Assembly: GCA_964247135.1 (NCBI GenBank)
Contig: CAXTTL010000153.1
Location: forward strand, 1 to 11,669
Reading direction: 5' to 3'
DNA length: 11,669 nucleotides
Source: an uncultured Deinococcales bacterium
Lineage (GTDB): Bacteria > Deinococcota > Deinococci > Deinococcales > JAAFIG01
Part shown: positions 51 through 11,669 of the stretch, in pieces
Numbering within the stretch: the stretch's first letter is position 1
Layout: each line of letters starts with the position of its first letter
Program-made: the position numbers and the translations under genes
The notes under the pieces: generated by a model
Databases searched by the model: none
Told to the model about the DNA's origin: nothing
What the model saw: only the letters and a program-made list of their open reading frames with translations

Positions 51-893
51 CTAAACTTCTCGTATCTCGAGGATTTCTGCCAGCAACGCCAGTTTCTCGA
101 GTGGTATGGCTTCCCCTCGAATTTCTGGCTCGAGGTTTGCGTGTTGGACGGCGGCTCGAATTTGCTCGTTGTCGTAACCCGCAAGCTTCAGGTTGTTGCG
201 CAAGGTTTTGCGCCGATGGTGCAAGACCGCCTCGAGAATTTTCACCACACCGTGCGCGGGTTTCTTGCCAGGTTCAACCGTAATTCTGGCGATGCTCGAG
301 GTGATGTCTGGTTCTGGGAAGAACGCGCCTTTGGGTACGTCGCGCAGGCGTTTGGCGCTGCCGTACAGGGCGACCAGAGCGCTCAAAAATCCGTAACCGT
401 CCGAGTTCACTTTGGCATCCAGGCGCAGGGCAACCTCGCGTTGCACCAAAAATGTCAGGCTGGCGAAACGTCCGCTCTCGAGAATTTTGGAGATGATGGC
501 GGTGGAAATGTAATACGGCAGGTTGGCGACCAAAATGCTGCCCTCGGGTGCATGATGCCAGGGAAACTCGAGTGCGTCTTTAAAAACCACGCGAACGTTG
601 GAAAGTCCTGCCAGGGTTTCCTCGAGCACGGGTTGCAAGCGTTCGTCTTTTTCGATGCTAATCACATTTGCGCCCGTTTCGGCAAGGGCTTTGGTCAGTA
701 CGCCCAAACCAGGACCGACTTCAAAAACGTTTGCGCCTGCGGTCGCGCCGCCCGCCTCAACCATAAAACGCAAGATGTTGCCGTCGATTAAAAAGTTTTG
801 CCCAAGCGATTTGGTGGGGCGCAAACCGTGACGCGTCAGCAATTCACGCACGACGCGGGGCGAGTACAGGGTTTGGCTGTCAATCTCAATCAT
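51..893 (-). CDS. rsmA: 16S rRNA (adenine1518/1519-N6)-dimethyltransferase RsmA/KsgA
   Basis: 280 aa ORF with KSLGQNFLID, SAM-binding EVGPGLG, catalytic VANLPYYIS, QREVA and C-terminal RRKTLRNNL motifs. AAGGGA RBS-like sequence just upstream of the ATG. Confidence 0.97.
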   Translation of the reverse strand: MIEIDSQTLYSPRVVRELLTRHGLRPTKSLGQNFLIDGNILRFMVEAGGATAGANVFEVGPGLGVLTKALAETGANVISIEKDERLQPVLEETLAGLSNVRVVFKDALEFPWHHAPEGSILVANLPYYISTAIISKILESGRFASLTFLVQREVALRLDAKVNSDGYGFLSALVALYGSAKRLRDVPKGAFFPEPDITSSIARITVEPGKKPAHGVVKILEAVLHHRRKTLRNNLKLAGYDNEQIRAAVQHANLEPEIRGEAIPLEKLALLAEILEIREV

Positions 894-903
894 AAAATCC
901 CTT

Positions 904-931
904 AAAAAACCTCGAGTTCGAGGCTCGAGGT
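904..931 (-). terminator. Putative intrinsic terminator/attenuator between carD and rsmA
   Basis: Perfect 8-bp stem ACCTCGAG (909-916) / CTCGAGGT (924-931) with a 7-nt loop. The A-run at 904-909 reads as a U-tract on the - strand. Confidence 0.55.
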
Positions 932-957
932 CAAAGCTTACGATATTTTTGGTGCTC

Positions 958-1455
958 TTAATGCTCTAAGGCGGTGCTGATTTTTTTGGCTGCCTCTTCA
1001 AGGCTGATCTCGAGGCTCATGGCGATTTCGGTGGTGACCATGTGCCGTGCGTCGTCCATGATTTTGCGTTCGGTGGCGGAGAGGGCTTTTTCATTGTCGC
1101 GGCGTTGCAAGGTGCCGACCAGTTTCGCCACCTGAAAAATGTCACCCTCACCAATCAGCAGTTGTTCTTTGCGGTGGCGCGGCGTCCAACCCGCAGGCAG
1201 TTCCAAATCTGGCGGACGCAGCCCCTCGAGCAGTTCTGGGATGAGTTTTGCCACGGTGATGCGCCGCAGTCCGACCCGTTCGGCTTGCGCGACGGGAACC
1301 AGCACGCTCATGCTGCCTTTCATCAGTTCAATCTCGAAAAACGATTGCGCTACGCCGAGCACTGGACGTTCGACCATGCCAATGATCTTGCCAGCACCTT
1401 GTGAGGGGTAAACCACATGATCGCCAACTTTGAATGGAACACTCGTCTGGGGCAT
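958..1455 (-). CDS. carD: CarD/CdnL family RNA-polymerase-binding transcription factor (165 aa)
   Basis: FKVGDHVVYPSQGAGKI N-terminal RID motif, VPV...GLR, conserved wedge Trp in LPAGWTPR, LSATERK. Start set at ATG 1455 because AAAGGAGG lies directly upstream. The track's extension to 1776 is spurious. Confidence 0.93.
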   Translation of the reverse strand: MPQTSVPFKVGDHVVYPSQGAGKIIGMVERPVLGVAQSFFEIELMKGSMSVLVPVAQAERVGLRRITVAKLIPELLEGLRPPDLELPAGWTPRHRKEQLLIGEGDIFQVAKLVGTLQRRDNEKALSATERKIMDDARHMVTTEIAMSLEISLEEAAKKISTALEH

Positions 1456-1554
1456 GAAAAACCCTCCTTTGAGGGGGGTTGAAGCACGGCATTCTCGAGC
1501 CTGGTATTGCCCGAGAGACACTTGACGAACGTTGCGCCAAGCGCCGGATAAGCG

Positions 1555-1584
1555 ATTATACCGTGATGGGTGCTTTTTACTCAA
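1555..1584 (-). promoter_or_regulatory. Sigma70-type promoter for carD(-rsmA)
   Basis: - strand reads TTGAGT (1584-1579), N18, TATAAT (1560-1555), implying a leader of about 90 nt. Confidence 0.6.
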
Positions 1585-1617
1585 GTTGAATGAGATACAC
1601 GCCTGGTTTGTATGGCG

Positions 1618-1623
1618 TACAAT
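1618..1623 (+). promoter_or_regulatory. -10 element of a probable leaderless amylase transcript
   Basis: TACAAT ends 6 nt before ATG 1630. No Shine-Dalgarno sequence. Confidence 0.55.
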
Positions 1624-1629
1624 CCTGAA

Positions 1630-3603
1630 ATGAAGCGCTTCATTTCGGGGTTGGCGGTCTTGTTTTTCGTCTTTGTTTTGGGCGCAGATTTCAGTGCGAC
1701 TCGAGCGCCGACCGCCTCGGGCAACGCCTGGTACGCAAATGCGGTTTTTTACGAGATTTTCGTGCGCTCGTTTCAAGATTCCAACAACGACGGCATCGGC
1801 GATTTCAAGGGTTTAACCGCCAGGCTGGACGATCTGAAGGCTTTGGGTGTCAATGCCCTGTGGCTGATGCCGATCAACCCAAGCCCAAGTTATCACGGTT
1901 ACGACGTGACCGATTATAAAAACGTCAACCCCGACTACGGCACGCTCGAGGATTTTGACGCCTTCATGAAAGCCGCCCACGAAAAGGGTTTTAAAGTGAT
2001 TCTGGACTGGGTGGCAAACCACACCTCGAGTCAACATCCGTGGTTTCTGGAGTCGCAAAAACCCAATTCACCCAAACGCAATTGGTATCAGTGGCGCGAC
2101 AGTGACCCAGGCTGGGGCAAACCGTGGGGAACCGCCGAGCACACCTGGCACCTTTCGACGGTCAAACAAACCTCGAGCAACCTGAAAGTGATTTTCCCTG
2201 GCACAATCCAGGGTGCCCTGGGCGCAAAAGACTGGAATCCCAACGGACAGGAAACCCGTGCGCTCGAGGTTTCGCCTGGAATTTTTGAGTTGGTGGTGAT
2301 GCTGCCCAAAGGAAGTTATGAATTCAAGGTCGCCTTGAATGGTTCGTGGTCAGAAAATTACGGTGCGAACGCCAAAAAAGACGGTGCGAACATCAAACTC
2401 GAGGTGGGCAGTGACAACATCATTGTCAAATTTGTCTTCAACCAAAGCACGCATATTGTCACCGACAGCATCAACAACCCAGATTTGGTTCAAGCCCCCA
2501 CCAGCGTTCCACCGCGTCCGACGTTTACCGATGCGCCCGTCCCAGCAGGCTCGAGTTATTACTACGGCGCATTCTGGGAGGGAATGCCCGACTTAAACTG
2601 GCGCAACCCAGAGGTGGTCGCCGCCATGAACGACGGCGCAAAATTCTGGCTTGATCGCGGTGTGGACGGCTTTAGAATTGATGCCATGCGTTACATGGTC
2701 GAGGGCGAAAACGACAACAAAGCCGACAGCGCGGCGACGCTCGAGTGGACGCGCAATTTCTCGGGTTTTGTGCGCGGCATCAAACCCGACGCAGCAATCG
2801 TCGGCGAGGTTTGGACGGACACCGAGACGGTCGCAAAATACTTTCTAAACGGCGCGGGCGAGCAAATGGGTTTTGACTTTCCAATGCAAAAAGCCATCGC
2901 CGCCAGCGTGAACGGCTCGAGCAACGAAGCCATCAATTTTGAGTTGGCTCGGGTTGGCAAAGCCTATGGTCCCGAGGCGGTCGATGCGATTTTTGTCAGC
3001 AACCACGATTTGGATCGCCCATCCTATTTTGGAGCGGGTCGTTACCGTGTCGCTGCAAATTTATTGTTGACCCTTCCAGGAACGCCGTTCTTGTATTACG
3101 GCGACGAGATTGGCATGAAAAATGGTTCTCAGGGCGGCGATGAAGCCAAACGCACCCCAATGCCTTGGGACTCGAGCCTTGGCGCGGGATTCTCGAGCGG
3201 CAAACCGTGGACGGGTTTTGCAATGCAAGACGCGGGCATCAGCGTTAAAACACAGCGCGAAACCAAGGGTTCACTTTGGAATTTTTACGCCAACATGATT
3301 CGCATTCGGCAAGCCAACACCGCTTTGCGGGTGGGTGGCTTCGAGCCGCTCGGCACCGACAAACGCATCATGGCGTTCATTCGTTATGTGAACGATCAAG
3401 CCGTGATTGTGGTGATTAATTTGGACAGTGAACCGCAAAAACTCAAACTCAATTTTACGGGCACTAAACTCGAGAAGGCTCGAGGGGCAGTGCATGAGTT
3501 GACGCTGAACAAAACCTTGAAAACACTTACAGACTCGAATGTTTCGGGTTACGAATTAAAATTGAATGGCGCAGGTTTGGTTTTGCTCGAGATTGGACGT
3601 TAA
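1630..3603 (+). CDS. Secreted GH13 alpha-amylase (AmyA/GH13_36-like) with an internal X25/CBM-like domain
   Basis: Signal peptide MKRFISGLAVLFFVFVLGA. Motifs FYEIFVRSFQDSNNDGIGDFKG, SYHGYDVTDY, region I DWVANH, MPDLN, catalytic GFRIDA, VGEVW, FVSNHD, and PFLYYGDEIGM. An insert of about 135 aa lies at about 2152-2556. Confidence 0.93.
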   Translation: MKRFISGLAVLFFVFVLGADFSATRAPTASGNAWYANAVFYEIFVRSFQDSNNDGIGDFKGLTARLDDLKALGVNALWLMPINPSPSYHGYDVTDYKNVNPDYGTLEDFDAFMKAAHEKGFKVILDWVANHTSSQHPWFLESQKPNSPKRNWYQWRDSDPGWGKPWGTAEHTWHLSTVKQTSSNLKVIFPGTIQGALGAKDWNPNGQETRALEVSPGIFELVVMLPKGSYEFKVALNGSWSENYGANAKKDGANIKLEVGSDNIIVKFVFNQSTHIVTDSINNPDLVQAPTSVPPRPTFTDAPVPAGSSYYYGAFWEGMPDLNWRNPEVVAAMNDGAKFWLDRGVDGFRIDAMRYMVEGENDNKADSAATLEWTRNFSGFVRGIKPDAAIVGEVWTDTETVAKYFLNGAGEQMGFDFPMQKAIAASVNGSSNEAINFELARVGKAYGPEAVDAIFVSNHDLDRPSYFGAGRYRVAANLLLTLPGTPFLYYGDEIGMKNGSQGGDEAKRTPMPWDSSLGAGFSSGKPWTGFAMQDAGISVKTQRETKGSLWNFYANMIRIRQANTALRVGGFEPLGTDKRIMAFIRYVNDQAVIVVINLDSEPQKLKLNFTGTKLEKARGAVHELTLNKTLKTLTDSNVSGYELKLNGAGLVLLEIGR

Positions 3604-3635
3604 ACCTCAAAATCCAGAATCTCGAGCATTGACCC

Positions 3636-3656
3636 GTAGGGTGCGCCGTGCGCACC
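3636..3656 (+). repeat. GTAG-family REP element
   Basis: GTAG followed by a perfect 7-bp hairpin GGTGCGC-CGT-GCGCACC, in the gap between convergent genes. Confidence 0.7.
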
Positions 3657-3691
3657 ACCGAACACAACGCACAAATTGAAGTTTGGAATCA

Positions 3692-4528
3692 TCAAGATGA
3701 TTCAACTCGAGTTGCCAAAAACTGTTTCATGGCAGCAGTGTTCAACCCATGAAACTCGAGGTACATTTCATCCACGGCGTTCACATCCAAATTCTGGCGT
3801 TTTAAGGCAGCCTCAAAACTTGCATCCACATCCGCCAAAAGACTTGCCTCGAGATACGCAAAATACCCGAGGTTCTGGGTGATTAATTGTGCATCGTGAA
3901 GCCCACCGTGACACGGCAGCACGACGCGCGGCTTTAGCGCCCTCAACTTGAGCATGGTGGCTCGGAGTTGCGCCAAATTGCCTGAGCTTGCCACATACGG
4001 AAAAGGAAACTCGAGCGCATCGGTTGCCAGCAAGGTTTGCAACTCAGGAATCCAAACCACGATCTGGTCGTTGGTGTGCCCAAAAGCGGGCATCAACTCG
4101 AGCGTCAAATCCGAGGCGTTGATGGTGCAAGTCTCCGAAAAGTACACGGTTGGCGGCACGATTTTAACGTTTGCCAGTCGCAGTTCGAGCTTTTGCCGCT
4201 CGAGCAACTGCGTTCGTTGATGCTCGAGTAAATCCTTGGAATGCTTGTGCGCCAGAATCGGCGCTGGAAACGCTCCATCTTGGGCAAACACGGCATTGCC
4301 CCAAGTGTGATCGGAATGCTGATGCGAATTGATGACCAGCAAAACCCGATGCTCGAGATTCGCTTTGAGCATCGGCATCATCTCGAGCGCGTCTTCGGGG
4401 GTGGTGAAGGTGTCGAGCACAATCACGTGCGAATCTGAGATGATTGCAAAGCAATCGACTTCGCTGCCCGCCCTAAAAATCCGAACTCGAGGATCGACAG
4501 CGTCATACATGATTTCAGTGATTGGCAT
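3692..4528 (-). CDS. MBL-fold metallo-hydrolase (278 aa), substrate unknown
   Basis: Motifs LDT, SHQHSDH (HxHxDH), GHT, ATDA and PCHG. Start set at ATG 4528 (MPITEI), which avoids overlap with the CIA30 gene and sits 7 nt after a TGnGATAAT element. Confidence 0.88.
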   Translation of the reverse strand: MPITEIMYDAVDPRVRIFRAGSEVDCFAIISDSHVIVLDTFTTPEDALEMMPMLKANLEHRVLLVINSHQHSDHTWGNAVFAQDGAFPAPILAHKHSKDLLEHQRTQLLERQKLELRLANVKIVPPTVYFSETCTINASDLTLELMPAFGHTNDQIVVWIPELQTLLATDALEFPFPYVASSGNLAQLRATMLKLRALKPRVVLPCHGGLHDAQLITQNLGYFAYLEASLLADVDASFEAALKRQNLDVNAVDEMYLEFHGLNTAAMKQFLATRVESS

Positions 4529-4535
4529 GACAGGA

Positions 4536-4559
4536 ATTATCGCATGGCTGCCGTAGAAT
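4536..4559. promoter_or_regulatory. Back-to-back -10 elements for divergent leaderless genes
   Basis: - strand: TG-C-GATAAT (4544-4536), 7 nt before ATG 4528. + strand: TAGAAT (4554-4559), 7 nt before ATG 4567. The gap is 38 bp, with no SD on either side. Confidence 0.55.
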
Positions 4560-4566
4560 CTCGAGC

Positions 4567-5112
4567 ATGATCCACAAACTTTCCTTGACCGCCTTGATTC
4601 TGACCATTGGCGCGGCACTGGCAGGCGATGACCGTGTGTTGTTTTCTTTTGCCGAAAAATCAGCCGATTGGTTTGTGGTCAACGACGGCGTCATGGGTGG
4701 AATCTCGAGCAGTACCGTCAAACTCGAGAATGGCGTCTTGGTTTTTGAAGGGCAGGTGCGCCTCGAGAACAACGGCGGGTTTGCTTCGGTGCGTTCAAAC
4801 TCGAGCGAGCAAGACTTAAGCGAGTATTCAGGTGTCATTGTTAAGTTTCGTGGCGACGGCAAAATGTATGCCATGAACTTAAGAACCTCGAGTGCCAAGG
4901 GCGTTTTGTACCAAGTTGAGTTTCAAACCACGGCGGACGCGTGGCTCGAGATTCGTATTCCCTTCGCGCAGTTCCGTCCAACCCGATTTGGCAACAGCTT
5001 AAAAGGCTTTGCGCTCGAGAAAAGTCGTATCGAATCCTTTGGATTTATTATTGCCAACAAACGCGCCGAACGCTTTAAGCTCGAGGTCGATTGGATCAAA
5101 GCATACCGTTAA
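4567..5112 (+). CDS. CIA30 family protein with N-terminal signal peptide
   Basis: Motifs WFVVNDGVMGG-S, FEGQVRLENNGGFASVRS, RGDGKMY, WLEIRIPFAQFRP and FKLEVDWI are typical of bacterial CIA30 (NDUFAF1-like) proteins. Hydrophobic N-terminus ending in ALA. Confidence 0.9.
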   Translation: MIHKLSLTALILTIGAALAGDDRVLFSFAEKSADWFVVNDGVMGGISSSTVKLENGVLVFEGQVRLENNGGFASVRSNSSEQDLSEYSGVIVKFRGDGKMYAMNLRTSSAKGVLYQVEFQTTADAWLEIRIPFAQFRPTRFGNSLKGFALEKSRIESFGFIIANKRAERFKLEVDWIKAYR

Positions 5113-5113
5113 A

Positions 5114-5806
5114 TCATTGGCTCGAGATCATCGGGGCAAGGGTTGTGCAAGCCAAATATGCCGTACCTTGCTCATCATTTTTGTACTCGTTCAACAAATC
5201 TGCCATGCGCCGCTGTAACTCCTTGGCTCGAGCAAAACCAAGGCGCAACATCACCCATTCGTGGCGAATCGCGGGCGCCTCGAGCGCCAAAAAACTCTGG
5301 GTCAAACCCACGCTGCCAGTCTCGCCCGAACCGAGCGCGTGAACAAAATACACGCGGTCATCACAGCGGTACAGGCGCAAACCCAACTCGAGCGAACTGT
5401 TCTCCTGGGCTTCCCTGAAGCTCCTTGACAGGCTTCTGACCAAATCCTTGCGCCACACGTGCTCACTGTTTTCGAGCAACCGTTCGAGCGTACCTTCGGG
5501 CGAGACGCTGTACGGCACAAAGTAAGCATCGCTGCTCGAGCGGTAATGTTGCACGCTGCGTCCTTTGCGGGCTTCAATTCGGCTGACTTGAAGCAATCCA
5601 AGTTGCTCAAGTTTTTTGACGCCACGGTACATTCCCAGCATCGGTAGCTCGAGTTCGCTGGCAGCGGCTTTGATGGTGGTTTCGCGCCCAAGAAAAGGGG
5701 TGAGCCATTTGGCTTCGTCGGCGTTGGTCAACAAACGGGCGGCAGCTTCAGACCCAATCGTCTGCCAGGTACGTTTTTCTGGGCTGCTTTCACCAACTGG
5801 TTGCAT
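5114..5806 (-). CDS. Winged helix-turn-helix (ArsR-like) putative transcriptional regulator, 230 aa
   Basis: AARLL...LTPFLGRETTIKAAASELEL...YRGVKKLEQLGLLQV...GRSVQHYRS wHTH pattern, resembling a family common in Deinococcus. Start set at ATG 5806, 7 nt after an extended -10. Confidence 0.75.
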   Translation of the reverse strand: MQPVGESSPEKRTWQTIGSEAAARLLTNADEAKWLTPFLGRETTIKAAASELELPMLGMYRGVKKLEQLGLLQVSRIEARKGRSVQHYRSSSDAYFVPYSVSPEGTLERLLENSEHVWRKDLVRSLSRSFREAQENSSLELGLRLYRCDDRVYFVHALGSGETGSVGLTQSFLALEAPAIRHEWVMLRLGFARAKELQRRMADLLNEYKNDEQGTAYLACTTLAPMISSQ

Positions 5807-5813
5807 TGAAAGC

Positions 5814-5822
5814 AGATTATCA
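5814..5822 (-). promoter_or_regulatory. Extended -10 (TGnTAATCT) of the probable leaderless regulator gene
   Basis: - strand reads TG-A-TAATCT-gctttca-ATG. Confidence 0.5.
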
Positions 5823-5896
5823 TGCACCCTGTTGGGGAAGGGCAACAAGAATATGTCAGTTTTAAAATTCTTGTCATCAATTTGTTACAGTTCTTA

Positions 5897-5913
5897 AACT
5901 TGTTTGACAAGTT
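5897..5913. promoter_or_regulatory. Inverted repeat overlapping a perfect TTGACA; candidate operator
   Basis: AACTTGT-TTG-ACAAGTT, with TTGACA at 5904-5909. No good -10 at canonical spacing. Confidence 0.4.
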
Positions 5914-6007
5914 ACTCTGACTCTTTTGTTTCAAGAGTTGGAAGCAAAACTATGGATAAACAATGCAAAATAAGTGATTAACTCTTGCATTTTAGATGTC
6001 ATTGCGT

Positions 6008-6021
6008 TGAAACATGTTTCA
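6008..6021. promoter_or_regulatory. Perfect 14-bp palindrome; candidate operator for the ABC operon
   Basis: TGAAACATGTTTCA. Related sites at 6075-6088 and 6118-6143. Confidence 0.5.
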
Positions 6022-6201
6022 TTTAGCCTAAGCGTAGTTTTACATTCAAGTCATTCTTAACCGAGCACAACAGATTGCATCGTTTCAAGCCATTCTCGAG
6101 AGGAGTAAGGGTGACTTAAAAACGTTTTTCAAAAACGGTTTCAACCAGCAAGTTCTCGAGTTTTGAGGGCGCTTAAAAGTGTTGTTCCAAAAGGAGGACG
6201 C

Positions 6202-7950
6202 ATGAAAAAAGCTTTAATCGCGGCAATCGGTCTGGTTCTGGGAAGTCAAGCCCTGGCAGCCCCGTTTGTCTGGTCTGGCAAGTGGACCTCGAGCAAACCA
6301 GCCGAGGTCAAAACGGGTGGCGTGATGCGCTGGACGAACCTGTCAGATCACAAGACGCTTAACCCCTTCACCACCGCCGAAACGGGCAATATTCCTGGGC
6401 AGGTGGCAGCCACTGGAGGCTTTTTTATTCTCGATCCGGTCACGCTCGATCAAGTGCCTTACATGGCGGAGTCGTACACGGTCTCAAAAGACAAATTGAC
6501 CTGGACCTTCAACATTCGCAAAGGTATGAAATGGTCGGACGGCAAACCGATTGTGGCAGACGATTGGGTGACCACCTTCAAAATTCATACCGACGAAGAT
6601 GTGGGTTCAAATTCTTTTGACAGCTTTTTTATCAACGACAAACCCGTGGTCGTCAGCAAAGTAGACTCTGATACCGTCAAAATAAGCTTCCCCTCCGTCA
6701 GCGCCACCGCCCTCGAGACGGTCGGGTTTGCGCCTTGGCCCGCGCACGTTTTTGCGCCCATCTACGCCGCCAAAGGTGCGGCGGGCATCAAAGCGATGTG
6801 GACGCTCTCGGAAAAACCCGAGAACATTGTCTCGAGCGGACCGTTTAAATACGTGTCCTACAAGGCGAGTGAGCGTTTGACCGTCGAAAAAAACCCGTAC
6901 TTTGCCGAATGGAACAAAGATTCGGCGGGAAACGGACTGCCTTACTTGGACGGTTATGTGCAATTGATCGTCAAAGATTTGACCGCCGACCTGGCGCAAT
7001 TCTTGGCAGGACAAACCGATATTTACGCCCCACCAAACGCCGATGCTTTGGGACAGGTCAAGCGGGCTGTCGATGGCGGCAACCTCAAAGCGGTCTTGCG
7101 AGCCAACGTTGGACCCGCCGCCTCGAGCCAATGGATTGTTTTTAATTGGAACCGTAAATCTGATCCGTTCAAACAAAAACTGTTCAGGGATGTCAACTTC
7201 CGCCGTGCAATGAGTCACCTGACAAACCGTGCGGCAATGGTGGACATCGTTCTGGGCGGTTTGGGCGCACCAGCCTACTCGAGCGTCTACGCGGCATTCA
7301 AGGACTGGGTTTCGCCAAATTTGCAAAAATTTGATTACAACCTCGAGGCTGCCAAAGGACTGCTCGCCAAAGTTGGTTTCAGCAAACGCAATGCCGATGG
7401 TTGGTTGGTGGATCGTGCAGGCAAGGTGCTCGAGTTTGACCTGAACACCAACGCGGGCAACACCAACCGCGAGCAACTGGCGAAGATTTTTGCCGACGAA
7501 GCCAAAAAAATTGGGGTCAAAGTCAATTTCAAACCGATTGATTTCAACTCTTTGGTGGCGGCGCTTTTACAAGAGGGTGAAGATCGCAAATTTGACGCCA
7601 TCTTGCTGGGACTTGCCAACGGCAGCATCGTATACCCGCTCGGCAACAACGTCGAACCTTGCGGCACGAACCTGCACGCCTTTAACAAGTCAGGCAAATG
7701 CCTTGAGCCTTGGGAATCGCAAGTCAGCGCCCTGTACTTCAGGGGCAAGTCCGAACTCGACACCGCCAAGCGCAAAGAGATCACCCACCAGATTCAAGAG
7801 GTTCAATCGGGTGCTCAAGCCTGGGATTACCTGATCTCGCCCAACGTCCACAACGCCTGGAATGCCCGTCTGCACGGCGAATTCCCCCAGGGCGTAATGA
7901 ATTCCATCACTGGACTCAACTATTACGAACTCGCCTGGGTCAGCCAATAA
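6202..7950 (+). CDS. ABC transporter substrate-binding protein, family 5 (peptide/nickel/oligosaccharide; OppA/DppA-like)
   Basis: AAGGAGG RBS at 6191-6197. SPase I signal peptide MKKALIAAIGLVLGSQALA with no lipobox. Motifs KTLNP, AESYTVSKDKLTWTFNIRKGMKWSDGKPIVADD, SGPF, KNPYF, FRRAM. Confidence 0.93.
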   Translation: MKKALIAAIGLVLGSQALAAPFVWSGKWTSSKPAEVKTGGVMRWTNLSDHKTLNPFTTAETGNIPGQVAATGGFFILDPVTLDQVPYMAESYTVSKDKLTWTFNIRKGMKWSDGKPIVADDWVTTFKIHTDEDVGSNSFDSFFINDKPVVVSKVDSDTVKISFPSVSATALETVGFAPWPAHVFAPIYAAKGAAGIKAMWTLSEKPENIVSSGPFKYVSYKASERLTVEKNPYFAEWNKDSAGNGLPYLDGYVQLIVKDLTADLAQFLAGQTDIYAPPNADALGQVKRAVDGGNLKAVLRANVGPAASSQWIVFNWNRKSDPFKQKLFRDVNFRRAMSHLTNRAAMVDIVLGGLGAPAYSSVYAAFKDWVSPNLQKFDYNLEAAKGLLAKVGFSKRNADGWLVDRAGKVLEFDLNTNAGNTNREQLAKIFADEAKKIGVKVNFKPIDFNSLVAALLQEGEDRKFDAILLGLANGSIVYPLGNNVEPCGTNLHAFNKSGKCLEPWESQVSALYFRGKSELDTAKRKEITHQIQEVQSGAQAWDYLISPNVHNAWNARLHGEFPQGVMNSITGLNYYELAWVSQ

Positions 7951-7959
7951 ATCAAGCTC

Positions 7960-7983
7960 GAGGGGCAGGTTTTCTTGCTCCTC
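7960..7983 (+). other. Intercistronic stem-loop (mRNA-stabilising or weak terminator)
   Basis: GAGGGGCAGG-TTTT-CTTGCTCCTC: 10-bp stem with two G-U pairs and no downstream U-tract. Confidence 0.55.
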
Positions 7984-8006
7984 ACGCGGTTCTCTCGAGG
8001 TAGACC

Positions 8007-8990
8007 ATGTTGCCCTTCATCTTAAAGCGCCTGCTCAACCTGATCCCAGTTTTTATCGGTGCGACCGCACTGGCGTTTTTTATCGTCCAAGCCGCACCAG
8101 GAGATTTCCTCGACACGCGCCGCATGGACCCTCGCAGCAAACCCGAAACCATCGCACGGCTCGAGACTCATTTTGGTTTGGACAAGCCCGTGCCTGTGCA
8201 GTACGTCATCTGGTTGAAAAATCTGGTCGGCGGGGATTTGGGAACATCCTTTGATTTTGACCGTCCCGTAATCGAAGTGATCGCGCCCCGCATCGCCAAT
8301 TCCTTGCTGCTGGTGGTGGGAAACATTATTTTGCTCTGGCTGCTGGCGATTCCGCTCGGTGTTTACGGTGCGGTGCGACAGTACAGCTTGGGCGATAAAA
8401 CCCTCAGTTTTGGCTCGTATATTTTTCTCGGCTTTCCAAGTTTTTTTCTCGGCTTGATCGTCGTGTACCTGCTGCTGCAATTCAAATTTGCCACTGGTAA
8501 TTTGATTTTCCCCTTGGGCGGCATGACCTCGGCGGGCAACGAAAACTTTTCACCGATCAAACAGATTTTTGACGTGCTCTGGCATTCGGTCGCCCCCATT
8601 TTGACCCTGACCATCATTGGCGTGGCAGGACTCTCGAGGTTCATGCGCGGACAGATGCTCGAGTTTCTGGACGCCGATTTTGTGCGCACCGCCAAAGCCA
8701 AAGGTTTGTCGCAACGTGCGGTCGTGTACAAGCACGCCCTGCGCAATGCACTGCTGCCCTTCGTGGCAAACATCGGCGGCATCTTGCCTGCGCTTGTGGG
8801 CGGCGCAGGTTTTGTCGAACAGGTTTTTAACTGGCCTGGAATTACACCCTTACTGCTCGCCTCCGTCAACTCTCAAGATTTATACGTTTTTCTGGGCTTG
8901 ATCGCCTTAACGCTGGTGCTGCTGATTTTTGGAAATCTGATTTCAGATTTGCTTTTGGCAGTGGTCGATCCTCGAGTGCGATTTGAGTGA
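8007..8990 (+). CDS. ABC transporter permease, OppB/DppB family
   Basis: FILKRLL, APGD, FGLDKP..VQY..WL....GDLGTSF, EAA loop DFVRTAKAKGLS...YKHALRNA, EQVFNWPG, DPRVR. Confidence 0.95.
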   Translation: MLPFILKRLLNLIPVFIGATALAFFIVQAAPGDFLDTRRMDPRSKPETIARLETHFGLDKPVPVQYVIWLKNLVGGDLGTSFDFDRPVIEVIAPRIANSLLLVVGNIILLWLLAIPLGVYGAVRQYSLGDKTLSFGSYIFLGFPSFFLGLIVVYLLLQFKFATGNLIFPLGGMTSAGNENFSPIKQIFDVLWHSVAPILTLTIIGVAGLSRFMRGQMLEFLDADFVRTAKAKGLSQRAVVYKHALRNALLPFVANIGGILPALVGGAGFVEQVFNWPGITPLLLASVNSQDLYVFLGLIALTLVLLIFGNLISDLLLAVVDPRVRFE

Positions 8991-9107
8991 TCTGTAGGAG
9001 CGCTGCGACCATGCCCGTTAGGTGCATTTTATGGTCAAGAAGCTTGCTGCCATTTAATCCAGAAACTCGTTTCTCATACCAAAAAATGTACTTTACCTCA
9101 CCTGAAG

Positions 9108-9227
9108 CCCTCATCCGGCGCTACGCGCCACCTTCTCCCGCAGGGAGAAGGAAAACCCCTCGAGCCAAACGTGTAGAGCAATGAACCCCCCTTCTCTCCT
9201 TGAAGAGAAGGGTCGGGGATGAGAGGG
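9108..9227. repeat. Composite inverted intergenic hairpin repeat (CIR/RIME/BoxC-like)
   Basis: Left arm 9108-9151: CCCTCATCC-GGCGC.TAC.GCGCC-A-CCTTCTCCC.GCA.GGGAGAAGG. Right arm 9189-9227: CCCTTCTCT.CCTTGA.AGAGAAGGG-TCGGGGATGAGAGGG. CTCATCC (9110-9116) is complementary to GGATGAG (9217-9223). Confidence 0.75.
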
Positions 9228-9286
9228 AACGCGCACTTGCCCCCTCCCAAGCCCTCAAAACCCTCTCTCAAACCACAGGTAAACCC

Positions 9287-10432
9287 ATGACCATTGCTGC
9301 AAAACCTTCAAACCAAAAACTCGAGCCTGCCGCTCGAGGTCAATCTCAGGCGCAGGTGGTTTGGGCGCAATTCAAAAAACACCAGTTGGCGATTTTTGGG
9401 GCGCTGATTCTGGGCGTGTTGTATTTGGGCGCGATTTTTGCGCCGTTCATCGCGCCCTACGGCATGGCGGAGTACAGCACCACGGACATCACCAAGTACC
9501 AACCGCCGACCAGGGTGTACTTTTCTGATCCCCAAACGGGGCAACTCGAGTTGCCGTTTGTTTACGCCAGCAAACGCACGATCAACCAAGAGACGTTTCA
9601 AACCACCTACCTCGAGGATCGTTCCGTAAAATATCCGTTGCGCTTGTTTGTGCGTCGTCCGCTCGAGCCGTATAAGTTTTTGGGTTTGATTCCAGGCGAT
9701 CTGCATTTGTTCGGTGTCGATCAGCCTCGCAAAGTGTTTTTGCTTGGTACGGACGGTTACGGGCGCGATCTGTTCACCCGCATTTGGTACGGGGCGCAAA
9801 TTTCGCTGACCATCGGAATTATTTCGACGCTGGTGATCAACATTTTGGGTGTTGTGCTGGGCGGCATCGCAGGCTTTTACCGTGGTTGGCTCGACAACCT
9901 GATCATGCGCTTTACCGAAATTCTGGCGGCGATTCCCGACATTTTTTTGCTGATCGCTCTAACGGCACTGCTGCCGCAAAACCTCGACCCAATTCTGGTG
10001 TTTTACGGCATTGTGGTGATGCTTGGTTTTATCAATTGGGGCGGTCTGGCGCGGGTCATGCGCGGGCAAATTCTGGCGATGCGAGATGCCGACTTTGTCC
10101 AAGCCGCGATTGCACTGGGTGCGTCGGAGGCTCGAGTGATCGGGCGGCACATGCTGCCCAACAATGCCTCGTTTTTGATTGTCAATGCCTCCCTCGCCAT
10201 TCCTGGTTTTATTCTTGCCGAATCTGGACTTTCTTTTATTGGTCGCGGCATCCGTGAACCGTACTCGAGTTGGGGGTTGTTGTTAAACGATGTGACCCAA
10301 GGTGGTTTCTCGAGTTTTACGGATCGTCCGTGGGTATTAATTCCTGGTTTTTTTATTGTTTTAACGATTCTGTCTTGGAATTTTGTGGGTGACGGTTTAC
10401 GCGATGCGCTCGACCCGAAAAAACGCAGGTGA
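9287..10432 (+). CDS. ABC transporter permease, OppC/DppC family
   Basis: WAQFKKHQLA, LLGTDGYGRDLFTRIWYGAQISL, DNLIMRFTE, EAA loop DFVQAAIALGAS, ESGLSFIG, GDGLRDALDP. Start at ATG 9287, because the track's 9200 start lies inside the repeat element. Confidence 0.95.
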   Translation: MTIAAKPSNQKLEPAARGQSQAQVVWAQFKKHQLAIFGALILGVLYLGAIFAPFIAPYGMAEYSTTDITKYQPPTRVYFSDPQTGQLELPFVYASKRTINQETFQTTYLEDRSVKYPLRLFVRRPLEPYKFLGLIPGDLHLFGVDQPRKVFLLGTDGYGRDLFTRIWYGAQISLTIGIISTLVINILGVVLGGIAGFYRGWLDNLIMRFTEILAAIPDIFLLIALTALLPQNLDPILVFYGIVVMLGFINWGGLARVMRGQILAMRDADFVQAAIALGASEARVIGRHMLPNNASFLIVNASLAIPGFILAESGLSFIGRGIREPYSSWGLLLNDVTQGGFSSFTDRPWVLIPGFFIVLTILSWNFVGDGLRDALDPKKRR

Positions 10433-10447
10433 TTTTAAGGAGGTCGT

Positions 10448-11669
10448 ATGAAAAAATATGTTGTTCCGCTGCTGGTGATCGGTTTGGGCATGGCGCTGGC
10501 TGCCACGCCCAAGAATGCCCTGATCGAAATCATTCAAGATGTTCCCGCCACGCTTGACCCCAGTCAGGCGTATGACACAGGCTCGAGTCAGTTGGTCGAG
10601 AATGTTTACGATCAATTGCTGGGTTATAAGGGCGCAGACATCAAAACCCTTGTGCCGCTGCTGGCGACCGAGTACAAGGCTTCCAACGCCGCCAAAACCT
10701 GGACGTTTACTTTGCGCAAAAACGTCAAGTTTCAGAACGGCGACACCCTGACATGTGACGATGCGGCGTACACGTTCCGCCGTGCGGTGATTGTGAATAA
10801 CCCAAACACTTGGGGCGGCATGATCCTTGGAACGACCATGTTTGGCACAACCGAAAATGCGAGTAGCGATAAATCCATCACCTGGGACAAAATCTCGAGC
10901 GCGATCTCTTGCAACTCGAGCGGACAACTGGTCTTTAAACTGAGCTTGCCCGACGCCTCAATGCCGTACAAGGTCGCGTACACGGCGGCGGGCATCATCA
11001 GTCAAAAGTATGCGGTTGCCAACAATGAGTGGAGCGGCACTTCAAGCGATTGGAAAGCCTGGATCGGTAAGGATTTGCAGGAAGCCAACGGCTTTTTGAA
11101 CACCAACATGATGGGCGCCGGACCCTATCAACTGATTTCCAAAAGCCAAACCCAGTATGTTTTCAAGGCTTTCGCGGGCTATTGGGGCGGCAAACCCGAC
11201 CTCGAGAATGTCATTTTGCAAGTTGTCCCAGAGGAAGCCACCCGCATTCTGGCACTCCAAAAAGGTGATGCCGACACGCTTGGCGCGACCGTTTCGCGCC
11301 CTGGTTTGGCGCAGCTTCAGGGTATCGCTGGCGTCAAGATCATGGATGACCTACCCAACCTGACCGCCTCGGCGATTTTCATGAATCAAAACATCAAAGA
11401 CCCTGCGATTTTGGGCGGTGGCACCTTGAACGAAAAGGGAATGCCTGCGAATTTCTTCAGTGACATCAACGTTCGCAAGGGCTTTGCGGCGGCTTACGAT
11501 TACAACCGTCACATCAGCGAGATTTTACTGACCAAAGGCAAACGCCGCACGATGGCGCTGCCCGAAAATTTCATCGGGTACGACCCAAGCATTCCGCTGG
11601 CGCAATTTAACCTCGAGAAAGCCAAAGGGTTTTTCAAGAAAGCGTTTAATGGCAAACTCTGGGAGACTG
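10448..11669 (+). CDS. Second family-5 ABC substrate-binding protein (truncated by window end; absent from the ORF track)
   Basis: AAGGAGG RBS at 10437-10443. Manual translation: MKKYVVPLLVIGLGMALA-ATPKN...TLDPSQAYD...ENVYDQLL...PLLATEY...TWTFTLRKNVKFQNGD...GAGPYQL...YWGGKP...FFSDINVRKGF. Frame open to the end of the window. Confidence 0.93.
   Translation, partial: MKKYVVPLLVIGLGMALAATPKNALIEIIQDVPATLDPSQAYDTGSSQLVENVYDQLLGYKGADIKTLVPLLATEYKASNAAKTWTFTLRKNVKFQNGDTLTCDDAAYTFRRAVIVNNPNTWGGMILGTTMFGTTENASSDKSITWDKISSAISCNSSGQLVFKLSLPDASMPYKVAYTAAGIISQKYAVANNEWSGTSSDWKAWIGKDLQEANGFLNTNMMGAGPYQLISKSQTQYVFKAFAGYWGGKPDLENVILQVVPEEATRILALQKGDADTLGATVSRPGLAQLQGIAGVKIMDDLPNLTASAIFMNQNIKDPAILGGGTLNEKGMPANFFSDINVRKGFAAAYDYNRHISEILLTKGKRRTMALPENFIGYDPSIPLAQFNLEKAKGFFKKAFNGKLWET

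Follow-up and report, generated by a model that had tools for sequence, protein, structure and literature searches.

CTCGAG, a hexamer very probably maintained as a highly iterated palindrome in a family of uncultured Deinococcales bacteria

Why should a six-base palindrome, which is also the recognition word of XhoI/PaeR7I-type restriction systems, recur throughout a stretch of ordinary bacterial genes? The question is raised by 11,669 nucleotides of DNA from an uncultured Deinococcales bacterium (the window), for which an original prediction had estimated about 82 copies of CTCGAG, an excess of about 25-fold, and had proposed a DNA-level system analogous to that of HIP1 (GCGATCGC), the highly iterated palindrome (HIP) of cyanobacteria. 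To our knowledge, such palindromes are on record from cyanobacteria alone, and what they do has been disputed since 1993. The window corresponds to contig C153 in the source genome, G000 (5,091,702 bp in 386 contigs, 52.65% GC, 84% complete). It contains exactly 82 CTCGAG sites, one per 142 bp, the first at 66-71 and the last at 11612-11617. In 200 dinucleotide-preserving shuffles of the window the mean count was 1.91 and the maximum 6, so that none of the 200 reached 82. The genome as a whole carries 33,925 copies, one per 150 bp (6.7 per kb), against a zero-order expectation of 1,369, an observed/expected ratio (O/E) of 24.8; the estimated number of sites and size of the excess were therefore accurate. 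The analysis described below indicates, with high confidence, that CTCGAG is a HIP-class six-base word whose abundance is kept far beyond expectation by a force that is directional and has the entire hexamer as its target.

CTCGAG is the commonest of all hexamers in G000, and the next most enriched ones are overlaps of it shifted by one base. The excess is not confined to a single contig, a possibility that the original prediction had allowed for: the word is present in every one of the 297 contigs that reach 5 kb, at 2.56-10.5 sites per kb, and not one of 2,803 windows of 3 kb is without it. A fourth-order Markov model gives an O/E of only 1.24, and 88% of CTCGA occurrences continue with G; this null was rejected as circular, because the 5-mers of CTCGAG itself feed the model. 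Public contigs from four independent studies match parts of the window at 90-100% identity (the public runs listed with matches were of DNA, with none of RNA, and each had a small share; their sole use here was to confirm that the sequence occurs in independent data), and G011, a closed genome from another genus of the same family, carries the word all round its chromosome. The excess is therefore no assembly artefact, a possibility that the original prediction had raised. The few 3-kb windows of G000 with just 3-5 sites (for example C70:13501, C8:22501 and C237:1) are mostly of low GC content (31-47%). They are candidate foreign islands, and CTCGAG density may serve as a marker of native versus foreign DNA.

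The excess acts at the DNA level. The 4,184 genes of G000 were called with an in-house coding-potential caller and cover 82% of the genome, with longest open reading frame (ORF) starts, some of which are too long. The density of CTCGAG is 6.56 per kb in coding and 7.11 per kb in unannotated DNA. Within genes all three frames are enriched, with 17,132 sites (63%) read as CTC|GAG, 4,012 as nCT|CGA|Gnn and 6,197 as nnC|TCG|AGn. Synonymous shuffling within each gene, which keeps both the proteins and the codon usage, leaves 3,743-3,908 sites (five replicates) out of the 27,341 observed, an excess of about 7.2-fold; this null is conservative, because codon usage is already inflated by CTCGAG. Codon-order shuffling of the same genes leaves 1,590-1,659 sites. 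In the congener G004, frames 1 and 2 are 13-fold above the synonymous null. Thus the excess does not vanish under codon- or dipeptide-preserving shuffles, and the argument that one codon pair is insufficient as a cause is upheld, since unannotated DNA is equally dense.

The unit of the signal is the bare hexamer. Around 33,886 sites of G000 the flanks show G at -1 in 39% and C at +1 in 39%, with the rest near background, and the information outside the six bases does not exceed 0.07 bit per position. No enrichment is seen for the other NTCGAN palindromes (TTCGAA 131, GTCGAC 121 and ATCGAT 1,063 copies), so the TCGA core, which had been considered as a possible unit, can be set aside; the degenerate forms CYCGRG and CTYRAG likewise show no enrichment in G000. 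The 18 one-off neighbours sum to 22,412 copies (mean 1,245) against the 33,925 of CTCGAG, and none of them is drained. The reversed word GAGCTC, built from the same two codons, has 0 copies. A repeat of the repetitive extragenic palindromic (REP) or miniature inverted-repeat transposable element (MITE) type was also considered as a carrier and rejected, given the near-absence of information outside the core and the gap-free alignment of sites to their one-off variants. Several compositional peculiarities of G000 may be recorded beside these counts. The tetramers AAAA/TTTT are 3 times over-represented, the dinucleotide TA has an O/E of 0.39, and CTCC/GGAG and CTCT/AGAG are depleted to 0.31-0.38; because of this last depletion, most CTC trinucleotides are followed by G.

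Sites are placed fairly evenly. Along the genes of G000 the density is flat, at 5.1-8.4 per kb and mostly 6-7, and just after stop codons it is higher, 13.1 per kb over 30 bp and 9.1 over the following 30. Short gaps between sites are scarce: those of 7-17 bp occur at 0.31-0.52 of expectation, and a gap of 6, which would make GAGCTC, was observed 0 times against 219 expected. Even spacing was rejected as a feature at short range, since gaps above 18 bp are near-geometric once this exclusion is allowed for, and no periodicity is claimed. Round the closed chromosome of G011, 20 samples of 20 kb each have 3.15-5.55 sites per kb, and the flanks of these sites show no asymmetry between samples of positive and negative GC skew.

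The clearest evidence for a force on the word comes from its conservation. Between G000 and its congener G004 (160,652 aligned columns, 84% identity), 912 of 1,145 sites are kept (79.7%) as opposed to 42% for other hexamers, which places CTCGAG at rank 1 of 407. Frame 0 and non-coding DNA (104/127) both keep 82% of their sites, and the remaining two frames keep 72% and 75.5%. The conserved sites are islands rather than parts of slowly evolving regions, because the 40 bases on either side of them have diverged by 16.5%, as compared with 14.2% at conserved control hexamers. The private sites (233 in G000, 195 in G004) face one-off alternatives that hit all six positions, mostly by transitions. 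The per-copy exchange of CTCGAG with its one-off neighbours is 0.089, the lowest of 378 hexamers (median 0.328), and its rate of loss per copy is about 3.7 times lower than that of other hexamers. In the alignable segments between G000 and G011 (71% identity), 142 of 480 sites are shared, in comparison with 17% for other hexamers. Positions thus turn over between genera while the density is kept, which means that the force still operates and is no relic; the proposal of active maintenance by a DNA-level system is in this respect confirmed. If the process is stationary, the neighbour ratio of 27 would imply that each site has a scaled advantage near ln(27), or roughly 3. The directional force could be per-copy selection or a conversion-like drive, and both predict the same sequence pattern. 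Import of sites by recombination tracts was also considered, and was rejected for lack of any specific signal at positions of gain and loss. Multi-base changes at those positions are mildly in excess (47/28/18/6% versus 60/27/9/3%).

The word also leaves its mark on proteins. The O/E of the dipeptide Leu-Glu is 2.34 in G000, 2.29 in G004, 2.06 in G011 and 2.49 in G253 (a distant genome rich in CTCGAG, described below), as against 1.14 in G197 and 1.03 in G020, two genomes poor in the word, and 1.58-1.69 in mildly enriched outgroups. The control dipeptide Glu-Leu stays at 0.85-1.08 in all genomes compared. At aligned orthologous positions, private Leu-Glu dipeptides number 81 in G000 versus 33 in G197, and 272 in G000 versus 65 in G020. 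In the same two alignments the Glu-Leu control stands at 33:36 and 108:71, and Leu-Asp is depleted (15:33 and 54:100). About 70-86% of the aligned Leu-Glu dipeptides of G000 are encoded as CTCGAG. The word thus prevails over codon choice and biases protein sequences in favour of Leu-Glu.

The trait had been expected to be a property of the lineage, and it is. The other 18 genomes of the source family (f1, five genera) all carry it, with 12,028-35,442 sites each (4.3-6.8 per kb), and GAGCTC is down to 3-25 copies in most genomes of the family. A 301-genome sample of the phylum, comprising one order and five families (row G265 was not relied on), has a wide range of densities: 0.01-0.2 sites per kb in genus g7, about 0.9 in g9, 1-2.8 in most of family f2, and 2-3.5 in genera g13, g18 and g19 of family f5. 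In the sampled outgroups CTCGAG is still the top or near-top hexamer, and it stands at 2-3 times the synonymous null when the frames are pooled and at 4-7 times that null in the two off-frames; outside ORFs its density is 1.8-2.5 per kb. Much of the order thus shows the DNA-level excess in a milder form. G020, of genus g7, has a single site in 200 kb and so avoids the word.

A second extreme lineage lies in family f3, where G253 carries 24,536 sites (7.0 per kb) versus 683 (0.3 per kb) in G197. The two genomes belong to the same genus by taxonomy label and differ 20-fold in density. Their five-protein identity is only 51%, so that their closeness depends on that label, and the samples compared below are small. 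The median protein identity of G253 to G000 is 46% (n = 12), close to the 47-50% of other outgroup families and below the 56% of G011 within the family; G253 is therefore no stray member of family f1. In a 47-kb sample of G253 (51% GC) the O/E of CTCGAG is 29.5, GAGCTC is absent (0 copies), and GGATCC, CTGCAG, CAGCTG, GTCGAC, CCGCGG and GCATGC have 0-1 copies each. In a 96-kb sample of G197 (50% GC), CTCGAG, GAGCTC and the other palindromes listed are all near expectation.

This loss of other palindromes is as marked in the source genome, where GAGCTC (0), GGGCCC (1), CGGCCG (3), AGGCCT (4), CGTACG (5), GGATCC (7), CCGCGG (11), CAGCTG (15), GCATGC (17) and AGATCT (25) are nearly absent. GGCC has an O/E of 0.016 in genus g1, as compared with 0.38 in G011. 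Such avoidance goes far beyond the usual avoidance of restriction sites and is common to G000 and the distant G253. The excess of CTCGAG and the avoidance of palindromes go together in family f1 and in G253, and G197 has neither. Among viral contigs with tight motif triplets (80 of at least 120 such stretches) none has this syndrome; they are mostly of high GC content, and GAGCTC is often as common in them.

One restriction system may link the two extreme lineages. At G000:C36:18510-22556 (locus L145) there is a complete PvuII-type system of endonuclease, helix-turn-helix (HTH) controller and N4-cytosine methylase (ORFs 726-1217, minus strand; 1214-1444, minus; 1501-2550, plus), which is also found in G253 (L243). 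The beta-class methylase matches PDB 1BOO (E 1.5e-149), with the PvuII-family endonuclease and the HTH controller alongside. Its orthologues occur in G002 and G007 within the family (3 of 19 with G000) and in G019 and G253 outside it. The copy in G253 is 67% identical, versus the 46% median for other proteins, which suggests that restriction systems have been exchanged horizontally between the two trait lineages. The recognition site of PvuII is CAGCTG, of which G000 has only 15 copies; the C36 enzyme therefore explains an avoided word and not the enriched one.

The original prediction had looked to a co-distributed orphan methyltransferase of CTCGAG or TCGA, and this part of it was not borne out. 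G000 holds about a dozen methyltransferase genes, and the family is rich in them. Four were traced over 41 genomes, and each occurs in 2-6 of the 18 other family genomes. Counted over all 19, the C36 enzyme is present in 3, two C5 enzymes in 4 and 4, and a D12 enzyme in 7, the identities of the last not following the phylogeny. Searches for PF01555, PF02086 and PF07669 in five well-assembled genomes of the family, and for PF02384 in all 19, likewise yielded variable repertoires and no family-wide orthologue; matches of about 500 amino acids labelled 'Eco57I' were discarded as candidates, being HsdM-like and mutually just 25-32% identical. PF01555 enzymes are absent from the closed genome G011, and G008 (91% complete) has no C5 enzyme detectable with the two queries used. 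These negatives apply to metagenome-assembled genomes (MAGs) that are 57-94% complete, and to the folds searched rather than to other or unusual methylase folds; different enzymes, moreover, can share a specificity. Vsr and TaqI_C domains were not found in G000, itself 84% complete. One CcrM-like PF01555 methylase gene (258 amino acids, G000:C189:4859-5632, minus strand, locus L009) has no CTCGAG in its 777 bp, although about 5 would be expected, and is probably a recent arrival.

Nor was an XhoI system found with the word in the family. No XhoI-family endonuclease (PF04555) was found in any of the 19 family genomes by a search that was positive in G021, G033 and G031, elsewhere in the order. 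The gene is intact in G021 (L231) and G033 (L230), and broken by TGA and TAG in G031 (L232); all three genomes still carry 1.7-2.0 CTCGAG per kb. Its partners are a convergent 340-residue beta-class methylase in G021 and G033 and, in G031, a 452-residue Eco57I/TaqI_C methylase ahead of the endonuclease. None of the 19 family genomes has an orthologue of the beta-class partner; for the gamma-class partner, neither G000 nor the set of enzymes collected from five genomes contains a close homologue.

How does CTCGAG compare with known systems? XhoI/PaeR7I-type systems share its recognition word, and restriction by them normally leads to avoidance, as in genus g7, not to a 25-fold excess. In Escherichia coli, the repair bias of Vsr toward CCWGG raises the target word of a methylase, with a small effect that drains specific T-containing neighbours; for CTCGAG, the corresponding neighbours are not depleted and no Vsr domain was found in G000. 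The uptake signal sequence (USS) of Pasteurellaceae and the DNA uptake sequence (DUS) of Neisseriaceae are driven by uptake bias without any methylase. Like CTCGAG, these are evenly spread, show a frame bias with an effect on peptides, form pairs at terminators and are shared by relatives. They differ in being non-palindromic words of 9-12 bases at about 1 per kb, where CTCGAG is a six-base palindrome at 6.7 per kb, and the uptake protein ComEC is present in five genomes whether CTCGAG is enriched or not.

The closest likeness is to HIP1 and the alternate HIPs of cyanobacteria. As far as the available parts of two sources go, these are short GC-rich palindromes, tens-fold over-represented in coding and non-coding DNA, spread by substitution rather than insertion, conserved above background, independent of codons, patchy or polyphyletic in distribution, and unexplained in function (Elhai 2015, PMC4390886; Xu et al. 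2018, PMC5861425). Periodic spacing at 10-90 kb is a further property given for them (Xu et al. 2018). CTCGAG shares with them the genome-wide excess, the codon independence, the conservation and the patchy phylogeny, and not the co-occurrence with a methyltransferase, none having been found that is co-distributed with it. It differs further in occurring in another phylum, in the word itself, in having six bases rather than eight, in its greater density (6.7 versus 0.3-2.7 per kb for HIP1; PMC4390886, in part), in one-off variants without a bias to the outer positions, and in the extreme avoidance of other palindromes that accompanies it. HIP1 raises transformation efficiency (bioRxiv 10.1101/2024.09.10.611283) and has been proposed as an uptake sequence (PMC13756078), according to the available portions of both. 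No non-cyanobacterial HIP appears in the accessible part of PMC5861425. No report of a CTCGAG excess in Deinococcota was found in the literature, including the available parts of PMC4390886, PMC13756078, PMC4060949 and PMC8112702; the excess is apparently unpublished, and supplementary tables or methylome surveys might list it.

Our preferred explanation has two layers, and taken as a whole it is put forward tentatively, as a plausible account that falls somewhat short of being probable. To the HIP-class word and its directional force, argued above, it adds a sequence-specific protein that would read CTCGAG without any conserved methyltransferase. This reader would most likely act in DNA exchange, with CTCGAG marking self or kin DNA in uptake or recombination, much as USS and DUS do and as has recently been proposed for HIP1. 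The original prediction, too, had listed an uptake signal and a protein-binding site among its alternatives. The strength of the word and the avoidance of restriction sites would then both scale with the traffic of foreign DNA and of restriction-modification systems, and heavy traffic would account for the near-total avoidance of restriction sites in both extreme lineages. By analogy with USS and DUS, this second layer is possible, though more doubtful than not. In its most specific form, CTCGAG would be a methylation-independent kin-DNA word, read as a bare hexamer by an uptake or recombination protein, with transformation as the conversion drive that writes it into genes. Such a drive would be strongest where DNA traffic is heaviest, and restriction sites would be purged there for that reason; this form of the idea we consider unlikely.

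Several points weigh against a reader in DNA exchange. The second layer is an argument from analogy, with no reading protein found. Known uptake signals are 9-12 bases long, non-palindromic and present at about 1 per kb, so that CTCGAG is both shorter and about eight times denser, and Thermus is not known to prefer any sequence in the DNA that it takes up. One might expect a competence gene to be missing where the trait is absent. However, loss of ComEC in the trait-free G197 was not seen; the gene is intact in G197, G253, G196, G011 and G009, which neither supports nor refutes the idea. The flanks of gained and lost sites exceed controls in divergence by a factor of only about 1.14, which is no different from the offset seen around conserved sites. 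Finally, a mechanism based on methylation could operate instead, given that non-orthologous enzymes might serve, that the MAGs are 57-94% complete, and that the effect of HIP1 depends on methylation.

In the methylation-linked mechanism (Elhai's model), a CTCGAG methyltransferase would act together with methyl-directed repair or strand discrimination, or the methylated sites would serve replication, repair or transformation. Cyanobacterial HIPs do co-occur with methyltransferases of the same word (PMC4390886, available in part), and methylation is required for the effect of HIP1 on transformation (bioRxiv 10.1101/2024.09.10.611283, likewise in part). Methyltransferases are also plentiful in the family genomes, and the order has CTCGAG methylases next to XhoI-family endonucleases. 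However, none of the traced enzymes is family-wide (3, 4, 4 and 7 of 19), PF02384 is patchy, G011 is without PF01555 and G008 without a C5 match, the XhoI-linked methylases have no family orthologue, and neither Vsr nor TaqI_C was found in G000. In addition, the neighbours that deamination would connect to CTCGAG (CTTGAG/CTCAAG and TTCGAG/CTCGAA) are not depleted, their O/E being 1.2-1.8. We rate this mechanism as rather unlikely. The palindrome might instead be the binding site of an abundant nucleoid-associated or condensing dimer, with density selected for compaction or protection. A palindromic hexamer fits a dimeric binder, the spread round the G011 chromosome is uniform, sites exclude one another below about 18 bp, and a structural role has been proposed for HIP1 (PMC5861425, in the part available). 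Yet no candidate protein was found, the short-range exclusion is also explicable by coding constraints together with the ban on GAGCTC, and the link with avoidance of restriction sites is left unexplained, so that an architectural site appears decidedly improbable.

A self marker of another kind can be imagined, either a Chi-like word that attenuates an end nuclease or the imprint of a resident, protected XhoI-type system that saturates the genome. At 6.7 sites per kb, as compared with about 0.25 in unrelated DNA, CTCGAG would be a very effective label; XhoI-type systems circulate in the order, and Chi-like behaviour has been suggested for HIP1 in the accessible part of one source (bioRxiv 10.1101/2024.09.10.611283). 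Nevertheless, no family genome (0/19) has the endonuclease, and a palindrome, being its own reverse complement, cannot be biased in orientation, the G011 flanks being symmetric between the GC-skew halves; a marker of this sort is very unlikely. The simplest alternative invokes no force on the word at all, and treats the excess as a by-product of Leu-Glu or codon-pair preference, or of sequence space squeezed by the avoided palindromes. It is true that 63% of coding sites lie in the CTC|GAG frame, that many other palindromes are nearly absent, and that in high-GC outgroups and in the viral contigs (80 of at least 120 stretches) the word is common largely through codon usage. Against this stand the 7.2-fold excess over the synonymous null, the 13-fold excess in frames 1 and 2 of G004, unannotated DNA as dense as coding DNA, the 104 of 127 non-coding sites kept, and the 0 copies of GAGCTC, which uses the same two codons. 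Moreover, about ten avoided hexamers with some 1,200 expected copies each cannot yield the approximately 32,500 extra copies of CTCGAG. Synonymous shuffling and conservation thus refute composition as the sole cause, and a by-product without any force on the word is scarcely credible.

The window itself is unremarkable apart from the word. Its 82 sites (66-11617), supported by counts and shuffles, have no extension save a weak G at -1 and C at +1, and they are dispersed over ten ordinary ORFs (51-11668) with 4-14 sites each. Family matches identify these as KsgA/RsmA-like, CarD, alpha-amylase, metallo-beta-lactamase (MBL)-fold, CIA30, two SBP_bac_5 binding proteins and two Opp-type permeases, with one ORF lacking a family. 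By frame, the sites in ORFs are 42 CTC|GAG, 9 nCT|CGA|Gnn and 24 nnC|TCG|AGn, site 1700 being counted twice since it falls in two overlapping ORFs. The original prediction was right that the DNA belongs to Deinococcota, that sites occur in every gene and in all three frames (for example at 1945, 1700 and 2025) and that no responsible gene is visible in the window. It was also right that some sites are intergenic, although with longest-ORF boundaries there are 8 of these (911, 924, 3621, 6095, 6155, 7957, 7994 and 9159) and not 10. The longest ORFs of the alpha-amylase (plus strand) and CarD (minus strand) overlap by 165 bp (1612-1776), and the true amylase start is probably further downstream than 1612.

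Three intergenic features deserve description. On the minus strand, 3' of CarD, a hairpin resembling an intrinsic terminator (902-932) is built from two CTCGAG copies (911-916 and 924-929); it has a 9-bp stem, ACCTCGAG / CTCGAGGT, a 7-nucleotide loop and a following T-run, and the ViennaRNA fold of 894-957 on the minus strand gives -14.2 kcal/mol. The spacer between binding-protein and permease genes (7951-8006, plus strand) has copies at 7957 and 7994 that flank a separate GC-rich hairpin; the fold has -20.9 kcal/mol, and the CTCGAG copies are not its main stem. Between the two permease genes lies a dispersed repeat resembling REP or REPIN elements (8993-9236), which holds one site (9159). 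Dozens of copies of it occur at 75-98% identity on other G000 contigs and in congeners, and summed public read depth is 36-470 in its bin as opposed to 0-19 elsewhere; this repeat is separate from the CTCGAG phenomenon. The window ends (1-113 and 11574-11669) match the ends of G000 contigs C129 and C45 at 81-94% identity, which probably reflects repeats or overlaps in the assembly graph where contigs break.

CTCGAG in these bacteria provides a second HIP case, which differs from the first in its phylum and its word and apparently lacks the link to a methyltransferase. The phenomenon is in that sense general, and the comparison tests what is essential to it. CTCGAG surpasses HIP1 in density and measurably rewrites proteins, and it is a very strong practical marker of native versus foreign DNA in these genomes. 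Its graded density, extreme in family f1 and in G253, intermediate at 2-3.5 per kb in genera g13, g18 and g19, and absent or avoided in g7, offers a comparative design for finding the responsible gene. If CTCGAG does prove to be a methylation-independent kin-DNA word, it would surpass every known uptake or recombination signal in shortness and density, and these bacteria would provide a second, experimentally independent system for the thirty-year-old problem of HIP1.

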